A DNA stretch of 64,000 nucleotides. Origin: a virus. This document shows positions 1,672-36,593 of the stretch, piece by piece. The first letter of the stretch is position 1. Every line of letters begins with the position of its first letter. The notes below the pieces were generated by a model that saw only the letters and a program-made list of their open reading frames with translations, searched no databases and was not told where the DNA came from. Position numbers and translations under genes: made by a program. The stretch lies in the IMG/VR virus record IMGVR_UViG_3300049893_001613, positions 1 through 64,000 of that record. One strand, given 5' to 3'.

Positions 1672-3908
1672 TATTTCTTCCAGTGTTGGGCTATGCGCAT
1701 ATCAACTCCCATCTTCAATTCCTTGATCAGGTAATTGTTTGCTGCTCGCTCCATTAAGTTTTTAATTTTAGGAGCCAGGATTTCCGCCTGCTCGGTTGGT
1801 ACATCACAAACATATTCGTCATGTACAGTTAATAAGAATCTTACATCAACCTTGTATAATCTTCTCCACAAGTCTATCATTGCAATAGCTTCTTTCATTA
1901 AATCTGAGTTCGTGCCTTGGATTGGACTGTTACGCGCTGCAAATTCTATCTCTGCTAAGGCTGATTTATCAAGAGGCCATCCATAATGATTATGATTCAA
2001 GACAGCATCAAACCATCTTCTTGAACCAGTACGGTTGTTATGGACTACATAGCCTTTTGTAGTTGCTTCCCGGGCTTTACCATCCAGGAATTCAATTACT
2101 TTAGGGATCTCGGCTTTGATTGTATCAATCATTACTTGACCCTCATCGAGAGTGATTTTAGCTGTGGCTGCTACTTTACCCGATGCTATACCATAAGCAA
2201 CAGGAAACAAACCACCACTGTTCTTGAATTTATCTCTCTCTTTCTCCTTCTCAGGAGTAGATTTGTTCATCTCGTATGTTTCAGAGAGTTCTTTCCATTT
2301 AGGATCACCAGTCTTTGAATACCTGTATGCGTAGATATTTCTCCAGCACTTGGTACCCAGATATGAGTGAGAATCAGGAATGGACAGAATCTTCATCATG
2401 TTCAAGTCATTTGATAATGATGTCATTACCATACCTTCACAATTAGAATAATCCAGGGTGAACATAGTTCGTCCTTCATCAGCAATAAAGCAACCACGGT
2501 ACTCCTGGGGTTTAGGTACCTGTTGCATATTAGGATTCTTCTTTACTTTACCCTTAGATCCTGATGTGAACCGGCCCGTGCCGGCACCCGCCTGATCAAG
2601 CCTTGTGTACACCCTGCCATCAGGCTGTACATACTGCTCAATCCACTTCTCACCAAATGAAGTTACATTATGAATAAGCTTTTTATACTTATCAAAGTTC
2701 TCCAGTAACGGCATGAATTCAGAGCTGGGGTTATTCACAAACCAGTTGGTGCGTGCTTCTTTTCCAACCCCTGGTTTCATGGAGTGTGTCTTCTGATCCT
2801 TGGATTGTGGCATAGGACAACCCACTCTCTTTAATACTTCTAATACTTGTTTCTGGGAACCCCAGTTAATCATCCCAGTATCCGTTTCTTCCGGTTCTTG
2901 CATTATAGTAGAAAGTTTCTGTAGTTGCTCCAGCGTCAGCTGATAACTCTTCAGATGTGTCTTTCCCCTTTCCTGCAGATTCTCCAGCTGTAGCTGTAGT
3001 TTTCCCAGACGGATATTGTTTCTTTCTTCTCGTTTTACTTTGCTTTCCAGTTTCTTCTTCAGTACCGGGTTTATCTGACTTGCGTCTACTCCGTACTGGT
3101 CCTTTATCAGATTGTCGAGGCTTTGGCATATCTCTTGTGCTTTGGTTTCTCTGTCCTTTGCAATCTCACGCCACTTTTCCGTATCGTGTTTAATACCGGT
3201 TGTTTCGGCTTCGGCAATTGGGAGTATGATTCTCGAATTGATGGACTCGTTCTGGAAAAGTTGATTGTAAGTTGCTGCTTGTCGTCTCTGTTCGTAATAA
3301 ACAGATTTAAGTCGAATAGTGTCAGCTGCATTGTATAGAATATGATAGTCTTCAAAATAGGTACAGGTTGCAAACTCTGACCGTATGTCTTTATCCATCC
3401 ATATTGGGATGGCATGGTACCCTAGTCGTCTGTTAATCACAGACACCAGGTCAAACCTGAATCCTTCCTGACCAGCTAATAACCTTTTGTCATTAACCAT
3501 AGTACATACGTACCGGCCTGGGTTAAATCCAGTAACATGACCCCACATTGCTTCATGGTCCGCATTATGAGATACGAACAGGCAGTGTCTAAGTACGTCT
3601 GGTGTGAATATCTCAGAATTATCTACTGAAGTATTATCAATTACCAGAACTTCCTCTTCTCCCGGGTCATCATTAAGACAGAAAGCACTTAGAAGTAAAT
3701 TTTCTTTTTTAGGAAAATCACCACGGTTTTCTATGTCATATCCTATTACAAACCAGTTGGGATTGTACTCAGTATCCCATAAAGAGTTTTTCGTATTCTT
3801 GATCTGTAAGATCGTGGATAGACTTATCTCGCCCGGTCTCACCAGCTGTATCATTGGATTTTGATTCAGTTGGTGGTCGCTTCTCCTGCTTAGAAACCAT
3901 ACTTTCAT
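1671..3908 (-). CDS. polA: DNA polymerase family A with 3'-5' exonuclease domain
   Basis: Exo motifs GYDIE, HNADHE, YNAAD; GTGRFTS, NMQQVP; motif A LDYSNCE; motif B RDKFK...AYG; NSPIQG; motif C VHDE. Start uncertain. Confidence 0.95.
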   Translation of the reverse strand: MKVWFLSRRSDHQLNQNPMIQLVRPGEISLSTILQIKNTKNSLWDTEYNPNWFVIGYDIENRGDFPKKENLLLSAFCLNDDPGEEEVLVIDNTSVDNSEIFTPDVLRHCLFVSHNADHEAMWGHVTGFNPGRYVCTMVNDKRLLAGQEGFRFDLVSVINRRLGYHAIPIWMDKDIRSEFATCTYFEDYHILYNAADTIRLKSVYYEQRRQAATYNQLFQNESINSRIILPIAEAETTGIKHDTEKWREIAKDRETKAQEICQSLDNLIKDQYGVDASQINPVLKKKLESKVKREERNNIRLGKLQLQLENLQERGKTHLKSYQLTLEQLQKLSTIMQEPEETDTGMINWGSQKQVLEVLKRVGCPMPQSKDQKTHSMKPGVGKEARTNWFVNNPSSEFMPLLENFDKYKKLIHNVTSFGEKWIEQYVQPDGRVYTRLDQAGAGTGRFTSGSKGKVKKNPNMQQVPKPQEYRGCFIADEGRTMFTLDYSNCEGMVMTSLSNDLNMMKILSIPDSHSYLGTKCWRNIYAYRYSKTGDPKWKELSETYEMNKSTPEKEKERDKFKNSGGLFPVAYGIASGKVAATAKITLDEGQVMIDTIKAEIPKVIEFLDGKAREATTKGYVVHNNRTGSRRWFDAVLNHNHYGWPLDKSALAEIEFAARNSPIQGTNSDLMKEAIAMIDLWRRLYKVDVRFLLTVHDEYVCDVPTEQAEILAPKIKNLMERAANNYLIKELKMGVDMRIAQHWKK

Positions 3909-14311: not shown

Positions 14312-14767
14312 ATGAAAACAAATATAGAAATCACTAAGTTCAGGTTTCCTGTATTTAAGTCTTACATATCCGTAGTAGTCTCAAACAACATTCCCAATGC
14401 CATTGATTTCATGGAGGATAAGATGCCCCATAAGATCCATGACCCGGATACAAAGAAGTTTACCCGGGCTTACATGTATGCCTATGAGGATGAACTGAAC
14501 AAAAGGAAGTACTTGCTATTCCTCAGACCTTCAGCCAAGCCTGGGGAGATAGCCCACGAAGTTAAACACCTGATTAACATCATGTTCAAGTGGCATGGAT
14601 ACCGGTTAAGCATCGATAACGATGAGCTGGAGTGCTACTACCTGGAAGATATCGTGGACCGCGTGCATTCTGCTATCCTCCGCTACAAGAAAAAATACAG
14701 TAAGCCCAAAAAAATAATCAGTAAAAAGCTTGACATTCCGGAAGAAACACCTATATTTGCACCATGA
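14312..14767 (+). CDS. Putative zincin-like metallopeptidase
   Basis: IAHEVKH (HExxH) with downstream NDELECY. Confidence 0.7.
   Translation: MKTNIEITKFRFPVFKSYISVVVSNNIPNAIDFMEDKMPHKIHDPDTKKFTRAYMYAYEDELNKRKYLLFLRPSAKPGEIAHEVKHLINIMFKWHGYRLSIDNDELECYYLEDIVDRVHSAILRYKKKYSKPKKIISKKLDIPEETPIFAP
14730..14759 (+). promoter_or_regulatory. Sigma-A-type promoter of tRNA block 1
   Basis: TTGA-N18-TATATTTG; predicted start near 14764. Confidence 0.75.
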
Positions 14768-14853
14768 TAACATTAACACTATCCCCCTTATCGCAGCAGC
14801 GCTATCTCAGTCATACTGGGAAAGAGGGGAGTACTGTGTTTAAAGATAATTAA
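14764..14853 (+). CDS. Leader peptide 1 (29 aa) of putative tRNA attenuator
   Basis: MITLTLSPLSQQRYLSHTGKEGSTVFKDN; codons 6-17 use only L,S,P,Q,R,Y,H, the amino acids of the nine downstream tRNAs. Confidence 0.8.
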   Translation: MITLTLSPLSQQRYLSHTGKEGSTVFKDN

Positions 14854-14889
14854 AGCCTTGTCAGGTTAATTTTTAAGTTAAACGTAAAG

Positions 14890-14915
14890 ACCCCTCCTAA
14901 ACCGAGGGGTTTTTT
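14890..14915 (+). terminator. Attenuator terminator 1
   Basis: ACCCCTC/GAGGGGT plus T run just before tRNA-Pro; 5' arm can pair alternatively with GAGGGG at 14824-14829. Confidence 0.85.
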
Positions 14916-14920
14916 ATTTT

Positions 14921-14993
14921 CTGGGTATATATCAATTGGTAGATTTCGTGCTTTGGGAGCATGAGGCTGGAGGTTCAAGTCCTTCTATCCAGA
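14921..14993 (+). tRNA. tRNA-Pro(TGG)
   Basis: Cloverleaf; loop TTTGGGA; T loop TTCAAGT. Confidence 0.9.
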
Positions 14994-14995
14994 CT

Positions 14996-15067
14996 GTCAA
15001 CATGGTGTAATGGTTAGCACCTAAGATTTTGGCTCTTAGAGTTAGGGTTCGAGTCCCTGTGTTGATA
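14996..15067 (+). tRNA. tRNA-Gln(TTG)
   Basis: Cloverleaf; loop TTTTGGC; TTCGAGT. Confidence 0.9.
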
Positions 15068-15069
15068 CT

Positions 15070-15143
15070 GTGTCTGTAGCTTAATGGCAGAGTCAAGGGT
15101 TGTGGTCCCTTTCGTGACGGTTCGACTCCGTTCAGACACCCCA
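15070..15143 (+). tRNA. tRNA-His(GTG)
   Basis: Cloverleaf; loop TTGTGGT; C73 plus encoded CCA. Confidence 0.9.
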
Positions 15144-15144
15144 T

Positions 15145-15216
15145 CTTCCTTTCGTTTAACTGGAAGGACGCAGCGCTACGAACGCTGTAATCCGGGTTCG
15201 AATCCTGGAGGGAAGA
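15145..15216 (+). tRNA. tRNA-Arg(ACG)
   Basis: Cloverleaf; loop CTACGAA. Confidence 0.92.
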
Positions 15217-15223
15217 CTTTAAT

Positions 15224-15299
15224 GCCCTTGTGGTCAAATTGGAAAAGGCGCCTGACTTAGGATCAGGAGATTTTGCAGGTTCGAAGCCTGCCAGGGGTA
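15224..15299 (+). tRNA. tRNA-Leu(TAG), short variable region
   Basis: Cloverleaf; loop CTTAGGA. Confidence 0.9.
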
Positions 15300-15303
15300 C
15301 AAT

Positions 15304-15376
15304 GCCGTCATGATGGAATGGAATACGTGTCAGACTTAAAATCTGAATTTTGCTGGTTCGAGTCCAGCTGGCGGTA
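15304..15376 (+). tRNA. tRNA-Leu(TAA), short variable region
   Basis: Cloverleaf; loop CTTAAAA. Confidence 0.9.
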
Positions 15377-15382
15377 CAATAC

Positions 15383-15467
15383 GGATGGAGTCCGGCATGG
15401 ACGAGGAAACGGTCTTGAAAACCGCTGGCCCTAACACGGTTCGTGAGTTCGATTCTCACTCCCTCCG
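15383..15467 (+). tRNA. tRNA-Ser(TGA)
   Basis: Loop CTTGAAA, long variable arm, G73. Confidence 0.9.
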
Positions 15468-15473
15468 CTAAAC

Positions 15474-15558
15474 AGAGAGTTAACCTACCAGGGTAGGCAA
15501 GCACTGCTAACGCTTTGGCTCGGGGTATCCGGGTGTGGGTCGCGACCACAGCTCTCTG
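15474..15558 (+). tRNA. tRNA-Ser(GCT), atypical T loop
   Basis: Acceptor AGAGAGT/GCTCTCT, loop CTGCTAA, long variable arm, G73; T loop GTCGCGA. Confidence 0.75.
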
Positions 15559-15563
15559 CATAT

Positions 15564-15635
15564 GCTTCAACACCCAGGGCAGGTGGGACGGTCTGTAAAA
15601 CCGAACCCCATGTAGTTCGAGTCTACTCTGAGGCA
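15564..15635 (+). tRNA. tRNA-Tyr(GTA), atypical
   Basis: CGGT-CTGTAAA-ACCG; GTAG-TTCGAGT-CTAC; short variable region. Confidence 0.75.
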
Positions 15636-15658
15636 CAAAAAATAAAGTTGTAAAAAGA

Positions 15659-15690
15659 TTTGGAAGTTTCAACTATCCTCCTCATCTTTG
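15659..15690 (+). promoter_or_regulatory. Sigma-A-type promoter of tRNA blocks 2/3
   Basis: TTTG-N20-CATCTTTG. Confidence 0.65.
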
Positions 15691-15697
15691 TATCCCT

Positions 15698-15775
15698 ATG
15701 AAGAAAGTATTAAAATCTGAAGAACAAGAGGCAGAAGAGCAATATGCTCCTGTCATCTATTTGGTTAGGATCTAA
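15698..15775 (+). CDS. Glu-rich leader peptide (25 aa) overlapping tRNA-Glu
   Basis: MKKVLKSEEQEAEEQYAPVIYLVRI; 5 Glu in 7 codons just before tRNA-Glu; stop lies inside the tRNA. Confidence 0.65.
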   Translation: MKKVLKSEEQEAEEQYAPVIYLVRI

Positions 15776-15818
15776 CACTTTCAATGTTAAAAAACGAGTT
15801 CGAATCTCGTCAGGAGTA
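15746..15818 (+). tRNA. tRNA-Glu(TTC)
   Basis: Cloverleaf; loop CTTTCAA; TTCGAAT. Confidence 0.9.
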
Positions 15819-15831
15819 CTAAAATTTAAAA

Positions 15832-15915
15832 ATGATGAAAAATTGGTTTAATATAGCGAATACGGTCATTACCATGAGAGATTGTGGCAAGGCTGTGTTA
15901 TATTGGGACCTGTAA
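15832..15915 (+). CDS. Leader peptide 3 (27 aa) of putative tRNA attenuator
   Basis: MMKNWFNIANTVITMRDCGKAVLYWDL after an A-rich leader; first 22 codons use exactly the 13 amino acids of the downstream tRNAs. Confidence 0.85.
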   Translation: MMKNWFNIANTVITMRDCGKAVLYWDL

Positions 15916-15941
15916 GATAGTTTGTATTATGTTTTCTGCAA

Positions 15942-15967
15942 AGGTCCCGTCACAAGCGGGACTTTTT
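15942..15967 (+). terminator. Attenuator terminator 3
   Basis: GTCCCG/CGGGAC plus TTTTT just before tRNA-Ala; AGGTCCC can pair alternatively with GGGACCT at 15905-15911. Confidence 0.85.
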
Positions 15968-15972
15968 CATTT

Positions 15973-16044
15973 GGGGCTAGAGACCAAGGCTGGCTGTTGT
16001 CCTTTGCAAGGATGACGTGGTGGGTTCGATTTCCACTTGCTCCA
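15973..16044 (+). tRNA. tRNA-Ala(TGC)
   Basis: GGGGCTA acceptor with G3:U70; loop TTTGCAA. Confidence 0.85.
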
Positions 16045-16048
16045 CTAT

Positions 16049-16121
16049 AGTTCTGAGGTCAAACGGTTAAGATGTATCACTGTCTATGATTACGGAGCGG
16101 GTTCAACTCCCGTCAGAACTG
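16049..16121 (+). tRNA. tRNA-Asp(GTC)
   Basis: Loop CTGTCTA; G73. Confidence 0.85.
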
Positions 16122-16130
16122 CAAACAAAA

Positions 16131-16203
16131 GGACTGGTAGCTCAGCGGCAGTAGCAAGCGGTTGTTAACCACTAGGTCGTAGGTTCGATCCCTACCTGGT
16201 CCT
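16131..16203 (+). tRNA. tRNA-Asn(GTT)
   Basis: Loop TTGTTAA; TTCGATC. Confidence 0.88.
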
Positions 16204-16208
16204 CACAT

Positions 16209-16330
16209 GGAGAATTCCCAGAGCACGGTGTGAAAAGCCGGAACGCTGGGGGATATAAATCCTTCCCTGTTAAGGGAAGTAACAGCAAGGGTTAAGAGAA
16301 ATCTTCTCCCGCTTTTTAAATTCTCCGCCA
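16209..16330 (+). ncRNA. Unclassified structured RNA with acceptor-like stem and GCCA end
   Basis: GGAGAATT/AATTCTCC-GCCA enclosing three hairpins; no T loop. Confidence 0.6.
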
Positions 16331-16401
16331 CACGTCCCGGGCTAGGGTAGCCAAGCGGTCTCCAAAACCGCAGGACAAGGTTCGATTCCTTGGGAGCGTG
16401 C
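16331..16401 (+). tRNA. tRNA-Trp(CCA)
   Basis: GCGGT-CTCCAAA-ACCGC; TTCGATT; irregular acceptor stem. Confidence 0.82.
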
Positions 16402-16405
16402 TTAT

Positions 16406-16478
16406 TCCGGTGAAGCTCATGTGGAAGAGCTACAGTTTTGTAAACTGAGGGCTGTCGGTTCGAACCCGTCCTCCGGAT
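16406..16478 (+). tRNA. tRNA-Thr(TGT)
   Basis: Loop TTTGTAA; TTCGAAC. Confidence 0.88.
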
Positions 16479-16514
16479 CATGTTAAGATTAAGACATAGG
16501 TCATTCTAAAATAA

Positions 16515-16585
16515 GCTCTTGTAGTTTAATGGAAAAACCTTTGTCTTCTAAACAAAAGATTCCGGTTCGAATCCGGGCAGGAGTT
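16515..16585 (+). tRNA. tRNA-Arg(TCT)
   Basis: TTTGT-CTTCTAA-ACAAA; TTCGAAT. Confidence 0.9.
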
Positions 16586-16588
16586 CAT

Positions 16589-16660
16589 CGACCCTTGGCG
16601 CAATGGTGGCGCAACTGGCTCATAACCAGCAGGACACTGGATCAGTACCAGTAGGGTCAA
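16589..16660 (+). tRNA. tRNA(CAT), Met/fMet/Ile2 identity unresolved
   Basis: Loop CTCATAA; C1xA72 mismatch; atypical T loop ATCAGTA. Confidence 0.8.
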
Positions 16661-16681
16661 CTAATTTAAAACCAATGTACA

Positions 16682-16795
16682 ATGGATGAGCAAGAATACG
16701 AATGGGCTAATGTTGAAAGGCCGGTAAAAGAAGAAGCTGAGGAACCAAAAACCTGCAGCTTAGAAGATGGTGAATGTTTAAGTTGTGGATCATGA
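16682..16795 (+). CDS. 37-aa acidic peptide ending CxxCGS
   Basis: MDEQEYEWANVERPVKEEAEEPKTCSLEDGECLSCGS; fills the gap between two tRNAs. Confidence 0.7.
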   Translation: MDEQEYEWANVERPVKEEAEEPKTCSLEDGECLSCGS

Positions 16796-16827
16796 TAACA
16801 GATAAGAAAGACTACGATAAGCTTAAT

Positions 16828-16899
16828 GCTGTCGTAGCTCCAATGTAGAGCTTCCGGCTTTTAACCGGAAGGTTGTGGGTTCAAGTCCCACCGGCAGTA
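16828..16899 (+). tRNA. tRNA-Lys(TTT)
   Basis: TCCGG-CTTTTAA-CCGGA. Confidence 0.92.
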
Positions 16900-16904
16900 C
16901 AGAT

Positions 16905-16978
16905 GTTGAAGTAATTCAAGTGGTACAGAACCCTCCCTGATAAGGAGGTATGTGGTGGTTCAAATCCATCCTTCAACA
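16905..16978 (+). tRNA. tRNA-Ile(GAT)
   Basis: CCTCC-CTGATAA-GGAGG. Confidence 0.92.
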
Positions 16979-16983
16979 CACAT

Positions 16984-17056
16984 CGGGGTGAGAATTGGTA
17001 TTCCATCGGGTCTCATAAGCCTGACTTCGTGGGTTCGTTTCCCACCGCCCCAACCA
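16984..17056 (+). tRNA. tRNA(CAT), initiator-like
   Basis: C1xA72, loop CTCATAA, encoded CCA. Confidence 0.82.
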
Positions 17057-17057
17057 T

Positions 17058-17130
17058 GGAGACATAACATAGATGGTCTATGTATCCGCCTGAAGAGCGG
17101 AAGATCCTGGATCGTTACCAGGTGGCTCCA
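17058..17130 (+). tRNA. tRNA-Phe(GAA)
   Basis: TCCGC-CTGAAGA-GCGGA; atypical T loop ATCGTTA. Confidence 0.82.
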
Positions 17131-17135
17131 CATAT

Positions 17136-17193
17136 CTCACCCTAAGAGGCTTTGCAGACTGGTACCGGAAAGCAGTAGTGTCGGGTGAGTCCA
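17136..17193 (+). ncRNA. 58-nt mini RNA with 7-bp acceptor stem and UCCA end
   Basis: CTCACCC/GGGTGAG-T-CCA; spaced like a tRNA gene; no D or T arm. Confidence 0.5.
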
Positions 17194-17194
17194 T

Positions 17195-17266
17195 GCTCCT
17201 TTAGTTCACCGGAAGAACGCTTGGTTTACATCCAAGATGCAGGTGGTTCAATTCCATCAGGGAGTA
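17195..17266 (+). tRNA. tRNA-Val(TAC)
   Basis: CTTGG-TTTACAT-CCAAG. Confidence 0.92.
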
Positions 17267-17307
17267 CAGGTAGTTTTGGAGGTTCTCGTGTAAAAAACCT
17301 TCTTCAT

Positions 17308-17383
17308 GCAGTAATAGCTCCCAATGTAGAGCGGTGGTCTTCCAAACCTCAGGCTGTGAGTTCAAGTCTCACTTACTGCACCA
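17308..17383 (+). tRNA. tRNA-Gly(TCC)
   Basis: Loop CTTCCAA; encoded CCA. Confidence 0.9.
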
Positions 17384-17384
17384 T

Positions 17385-17451
17385 GACCATGACGGCCGTA
17401 GAACTCTGTCTGCAAAACAGAGAAACGTGGGTTGAACTCCCACCTTGGTCT
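17385..17451 (+). tRNA. tRNA-Cys(GCA), reduced D arm
   Basis: TCTGT-CTGCAAA-ACAGA; U73; T loop TTGAACT. Confidence 0.75.
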
Positions 17452-34988: not shown

Positions 34989-36593
34989 ATGATTGATGTA
35001 AGAAAAGACAGTATCATCTACCAATCACAAGTTTACTACACGGACCTGATTAACGAGCTCGTAGAAAAAAGGAAAGTTGGTAAAGCGAATGAGAAGAGTT
35101 GGGAGAAAGCAGATACCATTTCTGGTTATCTCGATGCTCTTAACTACATAGATGTATTAGAAGATGACGATGACATCACGAATGTAAATTACATTCTTGA
35201 GTGTCTTATTATTCTTTGTGAGCTTAACCAATATCCGGTATCAGCTCCAATAGAATTCCAAGCTCCTCCAGCAGTATTAGTTGGTGTACAGGGAGAACCT
35301 GGTACAAGCGTTACTGGTCCTCAGGGCCCAGCAGGTCTCGCCACAGACTTCCAGGTAAGTTTAGTAACAACACCTACTGTAGTTGATTCTTTTGACCTTG
35401 TAGATGCCAAAGGAGCTCGCTGGGATTACGTTATCCTTAGTGATGATGGTTATCAGCGTGCAGGTAGTGTAATAGGTACCTGGCTTGATGACGGTTCAGA
35501 CCTGGCTTGGTTTGACACCTCCACAGGTGACATTGCAGGAGATACAGACCCTCTGTCATTCTCCGTAGAATTCCTAATTGATGAAATAAGATTAGTAGCT
35601 ACTCCAGCTTCAGGAACATGGACAGTAATAGGTACCCGATACTTCATACCAAATAACGGTAATGGTTCAGGTCCTATAGGAGATGTTCTTGCAAATGGTA
35701 AAGTATACATTGGTAATGCTTCCAACGTAGCAACTGCACAAACAATCTCAGGTGATATTACAATCACTAATGTTGGAGTTGCTACCATTGCTAACAGTGC
35801 TGTCACAAATGTGAAAGTAGATGCAGCTGCAGGAATAGAATTAACCAAGCTTGAAGCTCTCGTAGGAGGATATGTTACAGTAACAGACATCTCAGGATTT
35901 ATCTCTGAAAGTATTGTTACTACAGCAGAATTAGAATCACTATCTGGAATAGCCGGTAATGTACAAGACGAACTTGATTTAAAGATTACAGATCCTACTA
36001 CAACAGTAGGTGATATCATTATCCGCGATGCTGGTAATAACCTTACCAGATTAGGAATAGGTACTGCGGGACAGGTTCTTACAGTTGCTGGAGGTGCCCC
36101 TTCATGGGCAGCAGTTCCAGGTGGTATAACCGGGTTGACAACTCACTACTTACCAAAAGCTACTTCCGCTACTACAATAGGAAACAGCTTACTTGTTGAA
36201 ACAGGTTCAGCAATTTCTACTACTGGTACACTTGAAGCTCAGTCTGGTATGCGTACAGCATCTACCGGACCTTACTTAAGAACAAAAGTAATCGATATAG
36301 ATGAGTGGGATATGGATAGTATCCTATATAACCCTCACTCAGTCTCTCATGGGTTGGATTATACTAAGATCCGCTCCATCTCAGTAATCGTAAGAGCTGA
36401 TTCAAACGTACCAAACGTACCTCATTATGACCTAACCTATGCTGACACAAGCGGTGTGGCCCAAGGTAGATTTACGTATGGAAGTACTTCAGTATTCTTA
36501 TACCGTACTACAGGAGGTACTTTTGATAGTACAGACTTTAATGATAATACCTCTTACAACAGAGGTTGGATAACAATAGTTTACGAGGCATAA
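34989..36593 (+). CDS. Tail fibre/hub protein
   Basis: Short collagen-like GxY stretch; fibre repeats IGNASNVATAQTISGDITI and RLGIGTAGQVL. Confidence 0.75.
   Translation: MIDVRKDSIIYQSQVYYTDLINELVEKRKVGKANEKSWEKADTISGYLDALNYIDVLEDDDDITNVNYILECLIILCELNQYPVSAPIEFQAPPAVLVGVQGEPGTSVTGPQGPAGLATDFQVSLVTTPTVVDSFDLVDAKGARWDYVILSDDGYQRAGSVIGTWLDDGSDLAWFDTSTGDIAGDTDPLSFSVEFLIDEIRLVATPASGTWTVIGTRYFIPNNGNGSGPIGDVLANGKVYIGNASNVATAQTISGDITITNVGVATIANSAVTNVKVDAAAGIELTKLEALVGGYVTVTDISGFISESIVTTAELESLSGIAGNVQDELDLKITDPTTTVGDIIIRDAGNNLTRLGIGTAGQVLTVAGGAPSWAAVPGGITGLTTHYLPKATSATTIGNSLLVETGSAISTTGTLEAQSGMRTASTGPYLRTKVIDIDEWDMDSILYNPHSVSHGLDYTKIRSISVIVRADSNVPNVPHYDLTYADTSGVAQGRFTYGSTSVFLYRTTGGTFDSTDFNDNTSYNRGWITIVYEA

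Follow-up and report, generated by a model that had tools for sequence, protein, structure and literature searches.

Is a phage tRNA array simply switched on, or can its expression be gated by the state of translation in the infected cell? Phage transfer RNA (tRNA) genes are usually viewed as constitutive helpers of codon usage or as decoys against tRNA-cleaving defences, and to our knowledge the control of their expression is largely unknown. The question is raised by a 157-nucleotide (nt) element that directly precedes a tRNA array in IMG/VR virus record IMGVR_UViG_3300049893_001613. The window, that is, the whole stretch of DNA analysed here, is the first 64 kb of this 96,443-bp record. It holds a major capsid gene of crAss type (Pfam Crass_capsid, E 2.6e-60), and the source phage is crAss-like. 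The array comprises 24 tRNA genes for all 20 amino acids (14921-17450, ARAGORN) and opens with nine closely spaced genes, here called block 1. We propose, with a probability of roughly 0.7, that the element is a ribosome-mediated (leader-peptide) transcription attenuator that gates block 1, and that the first nine tRNAs are probably made only when ribosomes read a short checklist of codons slowly.

Codon content of the leader and identity of the downstream tRNAs

The evidence that carries this proposal begins with a short open reading frame (ORF) between a promoter and block 1. The features concerned are as follows.

14764-14853, + strand: leader ORF of 29 codons and a TAA stop (MITLTLSPLSQQRYLSHTGKEGSTVFKDN), with +1 predicted on the A of the ATG
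14767-14814, + strand: sensing zone, codons 2-17; 13 of 16 codons fall in block-1 classes, with each of the nine represented
14921-15636, + strand: tRNA block 1 (ARAGORN), Pro-UGG, Gln-UUG, His-GUG, Arg-ACG, Leu-UAG, Leu-UAA, Ser-UGA, Ser-GCU, Tyr-GUA

Two diverged relatives allow this arrangement to be compared. L015, a metagenome contig of 6.7 kb, encodes an upstream HExxH protein with 61% identity to that of the window and shows the same ATGA overlap with the leader. L051, found through its tRNA-Leu pattern, lacks the upstream HExxH gene; it is identical over 4.5 kb to a second IMG/VR record, L044, and the two were counted as one sequence. Both L015 and L051 carry the same nine tRNAs in unchanged order, with leader ORFs at the same position (25 codons in L015, 23 in L051). 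The promoter is almost invariant among the three phages, and the leader DNA from the ATG to the terminator is far more diverged.

The sensing zone was defined by geometry alone, as those codons at which a ribosome footprint of 30 nt stops short of RNA segment 2 (described below). Across the three phages, 38 of the 44 codons in the sensing zones belong to the nine block-1 classes, compared with 4 of 30 in the tails (Fisher p = 2.4e-10); measured against the frequency of these classes in the phage proteome, 0.30, the enrichment has a binomial p of 1e-14. The presumptive regulatory codons are therefore enriched for the tRNAs of the genes under proposed control. In each phage the zone covers nine of nine classes, including both Leu boxes, both Ser boxes and Arg as CGN rather than AGR. 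The codons that the original prediction had listed as sensing codons proved correct, all lying 5' of segment 2 and sampling both Leu boxes, both Ser boxes and, in addition, CGN-Arg.

The peptide cores, LSPLSQQRYLSH in the window, HLRPQSSHQNSYLS in L015 and HLRPSLQQQYLSL in L051, differ in order and retain the set. The leader peptides could not be aligned end to end, and their tails (TGKEGSTVFKDN, KISGAFLFT and LETGRGVIN, respectively) are unrelated. Because the codon set is kept while its order scrambles, selection would appear to act on the codons; selection on the peptide would have kept the order.

The frequency of such stretches was estimated in two ways. In the six frames of the 64 kb, only five places, the leader among them, have 13 or more of 16 consecutive codons in the nine classes with no class missing; in L015 the leader alone reaches this mark. 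When the tRNA blocks of 39 other phage loci were surveyed, only this lineage reached 11 of 12 codons with eight classes. The next-best ORFs of that survey (in L016 and L024) are rich in Leu and Ser, lie in high-GC DNA and have no terminator, and were judged to be chance matches.

Six of the 13 matched codons in the window (CTA, TCC, CCC, TCG, CGC and CTC) each account for at most 10% of their synonymous family in phage genes: CCC for 6% of Pro, CGC for 9% of Arg, CTC and CTA for 8% and 10% of Leu, and TCC and TCG for 8% and 3% of Ser. They are located at 14779-14814, and CGC, CCC and CTC are common to all three leaders. The phage has a single tRNA with uridine or inosine at anticodon position 34 (U34 or I34) for each four-codon box, and the rare checklist codons may be the hardest for its own tRNAs. 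Alternatively, they may report on host tRNAs or may simply form the C-run of RNA segment 1.

Terminator, alternative folds and promoter

Five RNA features lie within or after the leader ORF.

14776-14789, + strand: segment 1, 5' strand of helix 1:2 in minimum free energy (MFE) folds; its C-run comes from the TCC CCC codons
14824-14837, + strand: segment 2, 3' strand of helix 1:2; its GAGGGG (14824-14829) is a copy of terminator arm 4 and a possible partner of segment 3
14838-14883, + strand: spacer hairpin between segments 2 and 3, holding the leader stop codon (14851-14853)
14886-14896, + strand: segment 3, terminator 5' arm AAAGACCCCTC of an 11-bp stem
14904-14920, + strand: segment 4, with the terminator 3' arm (14904-14914) and T-run TTTTTTATTTT (14910-14920); hairpin -14.9 kcal/mol

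All four segments were found where the original prediction had placed them, namely TCCCCCTT at 14782-14789, AAGAGGGGA at 14822-14830, CCCCTC at 14891-14896 and GAGGGGT at 14904-14910. The claim that segments 3 and 4 with a T run form a terminator just before tRNA-Pro also held: arms 14886-14896 and 14904-14914 pair over 11 bp with a predicted energy of -14.9 kcal/mol, and the T-run at 14910-14920 abuts the first base of tRNA-Pro at 14921. There is no room for a second promoter between terminator and tRNA-Pro, so block 1 would be transcribed only through the terminator. A predicted intrinsic terminator separates leader ORF from tRNA genes in all three phages. The terminators before tRNA-Pro differ in sequence (AGGCTCC/GGGGCCT in L015, CCCCGC/GCGGGG in L051), and four of the eight terminator pairs show compensatory changes across the three phages.

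The MFE fold of 14764-14925 (z = -2.3 against shuffles) holds the terminator and a helix 1:2 that joins 14776-14789 with 14824-14837 through 12 bp in three runs. Nascent RNA ending on the last base ahead of segment 4 was then folded under a ribosome mask placed by its A-site codon. Without a ribosome, the window and L051 fold into 1:2 and segment 3 stays single-stranded. With the A site at codons 2-16 in the window, 2-15 in L015 or 2-13 in L051, segment 2 instead pairs with segment 3 across the spacer hairpin, giving a predicted anti-terminator; at codon 17 of the window this fold forms only in part. A ribosome past the sensing zone masks segment 2. Once the ribosome has reached the stop codon, helix 1:2 returns in the window; in L015 and L051 segment 2 lies under the footprint. 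In all three phages 1:2 is the fold that forms before segment 3 is made. These folds bear out, at the level of modelling, the proposal that a stall frees segment 2: a stalled ribosome led to 2:3 in the window, L015 and L051, GAGGGG at 14824-14829 pairing with CCCCTC at 14891-14896 whenever segment 1 was masked, and the absence of a ribosome or its presence at the stop codon left segment 3 free, in L015 without a ribosome through folding order only.

Anti-terminator pairing of equal strength was found in 12, 10 and 12 of 400 dinucleotide shuffles of the three leaders (about 3% each), and the full two-state switch in 1 of 400 for the window and 0 of 400 for L051. Taken together, the mask folds and shuffles predict mutually exclusive helices 1:2, 2:3 and 3:4 set by the position of the ribosome. 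For the 2:3 duplex energy of L015, p against dinucleotide shuffles is 0.006; helix by helix, the gain over shuffles is marginal. Segment 2 copies the terminator arm 4 of its own phage, as GAGGGG in the window and as the 9-nt GGGGCCTTT in L015, a match that amounts to apparent covariation between two otherwise unrelated elements. The 3' end of this G-run segment is 67 nt from the ATG in the window and L015 and 61 nt in L051. L015 and L051 likewise have a spacer hairpin enclosing the stop codon, and in all three phages the stop lies 30-33 nt before the terminator. A terminating ribosome would be too far away to melt the terminator, and would dismantle the scaffold that joins segments 2 and 3. 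Helices are given for each sequence separately because the MAFFT/RNAalifold alignment is out of register for 2:3.

The description of this geometry as classical was thus borne out in its pairing logic, which works in silico and is conserved; it falls short in that the stop codon lies 3' of segment 2 and that nine tRNA species are sampled.

The promoter elements upstream of the ORF are as follows.

14730-14735, + strand: -33/-35-like element TTGACA; 11 of 12 consensus matches in a promoter scan
14752-14759, + strand: Bacteroidota sigma-A -7 box TATATTTG (consensus TAnnTTTG), identical in all three phages

The promoter, TTGACA-N16-TATATTTG, occupies 14730-14759. The same DNA can be read in two ways, as TTGACA-16-TATATT (14730-14757), which fits the Escherichia coli sigma-70 consensus, and as a Bacteroidota sigma-A promoter. 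The window, L015 and L051 share the spacing TTGAC-N17-TATATTTG-N4-ATG. The -7 box of Flavobacterium promoters extends from -12 to -5 with G at -5, leaving 4-5 nt to the start site (PMC6847099, PMC9723704). We therefore scored a promoter as leaderless when it had TAnnTTTG with no G at either n, G at -5 and +1 on the start codon, and all three phages fit this description. With the G of TAnnTTTG at -5, the predicted +1 is the A of the leader ATG in each of them, and the leader messenger RNA (mRNA) would be leaderless, its predicted 5' end lying at the A of the ATG at 14764. The predicted ORF would accordingly stand near the 5' end of a transcript, upstream of the genes that it is proposed to control. 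Leaderless leader peptides have been proposed in Deinococcus (PMC4007540), and the TAnnTTTG-N4-ATG geometry would be a clear added case of leaderless initiation in Bacteroidota phages. The full TTG-N19-TAnnTTTG pattern shows no enrichment, with 3 matches in the window for an expected 1.3; the promoter call is made because the promoter is conserved in the relatives, not because it is frequent.

The original prediction left open whether initiation is leaderless or coupled. As it stated, the ATG at 14764 sits 4 nt past TATATTTG and overlaps the TGA (14765-14767) of the upstream ORF 14312-14767, and this ATGA overlap recurs in L015, so translational coupling is possible in those two phages. In L051 no upstream ORF overlaps the leader ATG: the upstream gene ends at the -33 element, and the frame ending at the TGA is open for only eight codons. 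Coupling therefore cannot be the conserved mode. From the sequences, leaderless initiation is favoured over coupling, with the predicted +1 on the ATG in three of three phages.

A search for the promoter-N4-ATGA pattern, which itself required the ATG, also matched the first codon of conserved genes of 71 and 54 amino acids in six other IMG/VR contigs, so real genes do begin with this arrangement. The 71-residue family (M[ST][NK]L[FR]PPD...) and the 54-residue protein start 4 nt after TTGAC-N17-TATATTTG (L055-L058, L060 and L059); in L055-L058 and L060 the ATG follows an TATATTTG-cacc motif. These are candidate leaderless protein genes with a geometry like that of the tRNA leader.

Proposed mechanism and competing explanations

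Sequence alone gives the parts of the element, how far they are conserved, how codon composition follows geometry and which alternative folds are predicted. From these we infer where transcription starts, that the ORF is translated, which way the control works and what triggers it physiologically. Host RNA polymerase would start at the Bacteroidota-type promoter, and the transcript would open with the AUG of the 29-codon ORF, in which codons 2-17 would serve as a checklist where every one of the nine downstream tRNAs has one codon or more. Behind a ribosome that reaches the stop codon, segments 1 and 2 would pair in the window; in the relatives the ribosome would cover segment 2 directly. Positioned inside the spacer hairpin, it would leave segment 3 free to form the 3:4 terminator, and transcription would end one base before tRNA-Pro. 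A ribosome stalled for want of any of the nine charged tRNAs would cover segment 1, allowing 2:3 to pair with the assistance of the spacer hairpin. The terminator would then be blocked, and polymerase would read into the tRNA block. The outcome would be negative feedback, with tRNAs made on demand. If this is true, the phage gauges the decoding capacity of the infected cell and replenishes only the tRNAs that are missing. The idea is directly testable, since the element is self-contained within about 190 nt.

Several points weigh against this attenuator. The start site, translation and termination are predicted. Leaderless mRNAs are a minority in Bacteroidota, amounting to 5.5% in F. psychrophilum, and 87% of predicted transcripts in F. 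johnsoniae have leaders longer than 10 nt (PMC9723704, PMC6847099). The three leaders are homologous, so the statistics on them are not fully independent. Most of the nine tRNAs have only one to three codons here, in contrast to the runs in the his and phe leaders. The C-ending codons CCC, CTC and TCC match the phage U34 anticodons by wobble only, and C-ending checklist codons may report on host tRNAs more than on phage tRNAs. On the structural side, 2:3 beats 1:2 by 2 kcal/mol in L015 without a ribosome; being the less stable fold there, the off state of L015 would be kinetic and would depend on folding order. The single-helix 2:3 duplex energies of the window and L051 differ little from those of dinucleotide shuffles (p = 0.06 and 0.15), and the CCCC:GGGG core of 1:2 shows no covariation, since the consensus fold of the three phages has the same bases there throughout. 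Given these weak single-helix energies and the invariant core, the structural case rests on the joint behaviour of the helices and its conservation.

The rival explanation that survives best, itself unlikely, accepts that the ORF is translated and reports tRNA supply, and places the output in Rho access, ribonuclease (RNase) processing or precursor stability, the hairpin being a fixed leaky terminator or a processing signal. The codon composition is compatible with it, as it supports translation-based sensing and no particular output; so are the weak single-helix statistics and the preference of L015 for 2:3 even without a ribosome. It does not explain why in two phages, whose terminator arms differ, segment 2 copies the arm of its own phage, or why the switch is found in only 1 of 400 and 0 of 400 shuffles. 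The distance of 30-33 nt from stop codon to terminator is also too great for direct melting, yet keeps the stop within the spacer hairpin.

Rather more doubtful is a plain promoter followed by a leaky terminator, with the composition of the ORF a by-product and the output either constitutive partial read-through or the work of a phage anti-termination factor. Promoters, hairpins and T-runs are common features, and the leader codons are rare in phage genes, as those of untranslated DNA might be. Such an arrangement would nevertheless have to accommodate a nine-class checklist that survives scrambled peptide order and diverged DNA in three phages, a composition boundary that falls at segment 2 (p = 2.4e-10), and, in three of three phages, an ATG at the predicted +1 and a frame open for 23-29 codons.

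An RNA-only or factor-dependent switch, in which a protein, a tRNA (in the manner of a T-box) or a small molecule binds the leader and the ORF is irrelevant, appears less probable again. Alternative pairings do exist whatever the translation, and the sub-threshold Rfam matches described below show generic attenuator shape only. Against this, no T-box or riboswitch family matched even at E up to 1-5, a single RNA could hardly read nine tRNAs, and the tracking of the downstream tRNA set by codon composition, in the frame of the +1 ATG, would be left unexplained. Least credible of all, a functional micro-protein whose mRNA is merely ended by the terminator would agree with the retention of a 23-29-codon ORF in three phages, but the peptides share composition and not sequence, their tails are unrelated, and the tRNAs would be left without a promoter of their own.

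Building on the leader-peptide attenuator, a broader interpretation can be put forward, for and against which we see the balance as even. Here the phage would act as a tRNA-supply homeostat, in which leaderless checklist ORFs sense in real time any tRNA shortage, whether from codon-usage mismatch, host shut-off or host anticodon nucleases, and only then open the replacement tRNAs. The element described here would sense nine tRNAs, deliberately using the hardest C-ending wobble codons (CCC, CGC, CTC and TCC) as a stringent test of the minimal U34/I34 set.

Neighbouring features and comparison with known systems

One gene borders the element on its upstream side.

14312-14767, + strand: upstream ORF of 151 amino acids with a conserved HExxH; the promoter lies inside its last codons, and its TGA overlaps the leader ATG (ATGA)

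The ORF had been called a peptidase gene, a name with no basis beyond the conserved HExxH: it has no Pfam match, and its sole PHROG match, 1365, is a family of unknown function. Its closest protein relatives are P0002 (87% identity) and P0003 (72%). The C-terminal tail of the protein (…PIFAP; …NAILS in distant relatives) is conserved (window 14740-14767; alignment A1), and in the window and L015 this is apparently because the tail is encoded by the embedded promoter. In L051 a remnant frame, …LVIFAP*, is retained without the HExxH gene.

Searches for further relatives gave little. Contigs X2 and X3 cover the leader with one and six differences. Compared with 50,697 phage records by megablast and blastn, the locus showed similarity in tRNA-Pro only. 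An exact search of IMG/VR for the terminator gave no match, the upstream protein alone found no relative in IMG/VR, and no relative came from the GTDB genomes. Loci reached through the 345-residue downstream gene (L002-L004) or through distant HExxH homologues (L009-L014) have no tRNA array at this place and are uninformative.

L051 also keeps the other leaders of the array, a Glu-rich ORF that runs into tRNA-Glu and an MKKNWFN... ORF with a terminator, and its Glu leader again has TACATTTG-N4-ATG. The promoter before the Glu-rich leader reads ATTTGGAAGTTTCAA-N14-TTTG (window 15670-15691; L051:1484-1516; L061-L097). The same pattern is present in 39 IMG/VR phage contigs of very different sizes, sometimes twice in a contig, before protein genes as well as tRNAs, and looks like a widely shared extended promoter of Bacteroidota phages. 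The L051 array is interrupted by protein-coding inserts absent from the window (2047-2441, 2606-2998 and 3437-3796). The insert between Asn and Trp carries an HNH-like CxxC...CxxCH motif in its ORF; the other two have ORFs of 130 residues (Thr/Arg-UCU) and 119 residues (Met/Phe). All three are probably mobile insertions. L015 has a second promoter after tRNA-Tyr (L015:5349-5433), TTGACA-N17-TACATTTG, with an ATG 6 nt further on. The leader that follows, ATG AAT ATG AAT TCA AAC CAG ATA GAA TGT AGA ACC GTA ACC GAA..., seems to combine Glu with amino acids of block 3; the contig stops at this point.

Among phages, T4 and T5 have tRNA clusters with promoters, terminators, small ORFs and homing-endonuclease genes scattered among them (T5 annotation). 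When the T5 small ORFs beside the tRNAs were checked, none had the form of a codon-matched leader followed by a terminator. Two of these ORFs have a suggestive composition: T5.072 (L098, record positions 35617-35892), upstream of promoter P14a and of tRNAs Tyr-Glu-Trp-Phe, contains WEGWEGEIEWLYFY, in which 10 of 14 residues are W, E, Y or F, and T5.070 (L098, 34627-34755), before tRNA-Cys, has six Cys in 42 residues. Neither has a terminator or attenuator geometry, and the compositions may reflect chance or a zinc ribbon.

No Rfam leader family matched at threshold, and the element is a member of none. The best matches were to three different families: the window to His_leader RF00514 (25.1 bits, threshold 49, E 0.51), L015 to Phe_leader RF01859 (23.4 bits, threshold 55, E 4.6) and L051 to Trp_leader RF00513 (20.9 bits, threshold 41, E 3.1). 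These sub-threshold matches sit exactly on the leaders (window 14767-14917; L015:4494-4584; L051:637-722). With such E-values they could be chance, but that all three fall on the leaders is notable. A T-box works without translation: it recognises a single, specific uncharged tRNA by direct binding and acts by anti-termination of genes for the translation apparatus. The present element would share with it transcription anti-termination tied to tRNA charging, here for nine tRNAs. The T-box family (RF00230) was not matched by the window at E of 1 or below, or by the relatives at E of 5 or below.

A literature search found no account of leader-peptide control of tRNA genes, phage ones included, the T5 papers of the 1980s being outside that search. 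Among published systems the nearest in function is the trn operon of Anabaena PCC 7120, a horizontally spread array of supernumerary tRNAs that is kept off until impaired translation induces it (PMC8421152). The control of the Anabaena array is exerted at its promoter by a protein repressor, the ribbon-helix-helix protein TrcR (PMC10272220); the terms leader peptide, attenuation and terminator do not occur in either of these two papers. In Deinococcus deserti, leaderless leader peptides are predicted before aminoacyl-tRNA synthetase and amino-acid genes, as very short ORFs that are enriched in the relevant amino acid and have the transcription start on their AUG (PMC4007540). A predicted start on the AUG is common to both systems, and the D. 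deserti leaders are likewise proposed to attenuate, in their case translation-related genes; they address a single amino acid and bacterial protein genes, whereas here a nine-tRNA checklist would stand before phage tRNA genes.

The mechanism proposed for the phage element is of the trp-attenuator kind, and its tRNA-gene target and nine-tRNA checklist are unreported in the searchable literature. In the trpL, hisL, pheL and leuL attenuators a short ORF is translated, helices 1:2, 2:3 and 3:4 exclude one another, the terminator ends in a T-run, and a stall leads to read-through; the multivalent thrL and ilvGMEDA leaders sense more than one amino acid. With these enterobacterial leaders the phage element shares a short ORF, regulatory codons in or before segment 1, exclusive helices and an intrinsic terminator, here predicted. 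The trp attenuation model is summarised in PMC4007540. Unlike the enterobacterial leaders, the element would control tRNAs and not biosynthetic enzymes, samples nine tRNA species rather than a run of one codon, has its stop codon 3' of segment 2 in a long spacer hairpin (about 45 nt), and has a predicted leaderless start from a Bacteroidota promoter on a phage. If the proposal is true, attenuation of the Yanofsky type would reach beyond the supply of amino acids to that of tRNAs, and its range would widen from a single amino acid to nine.

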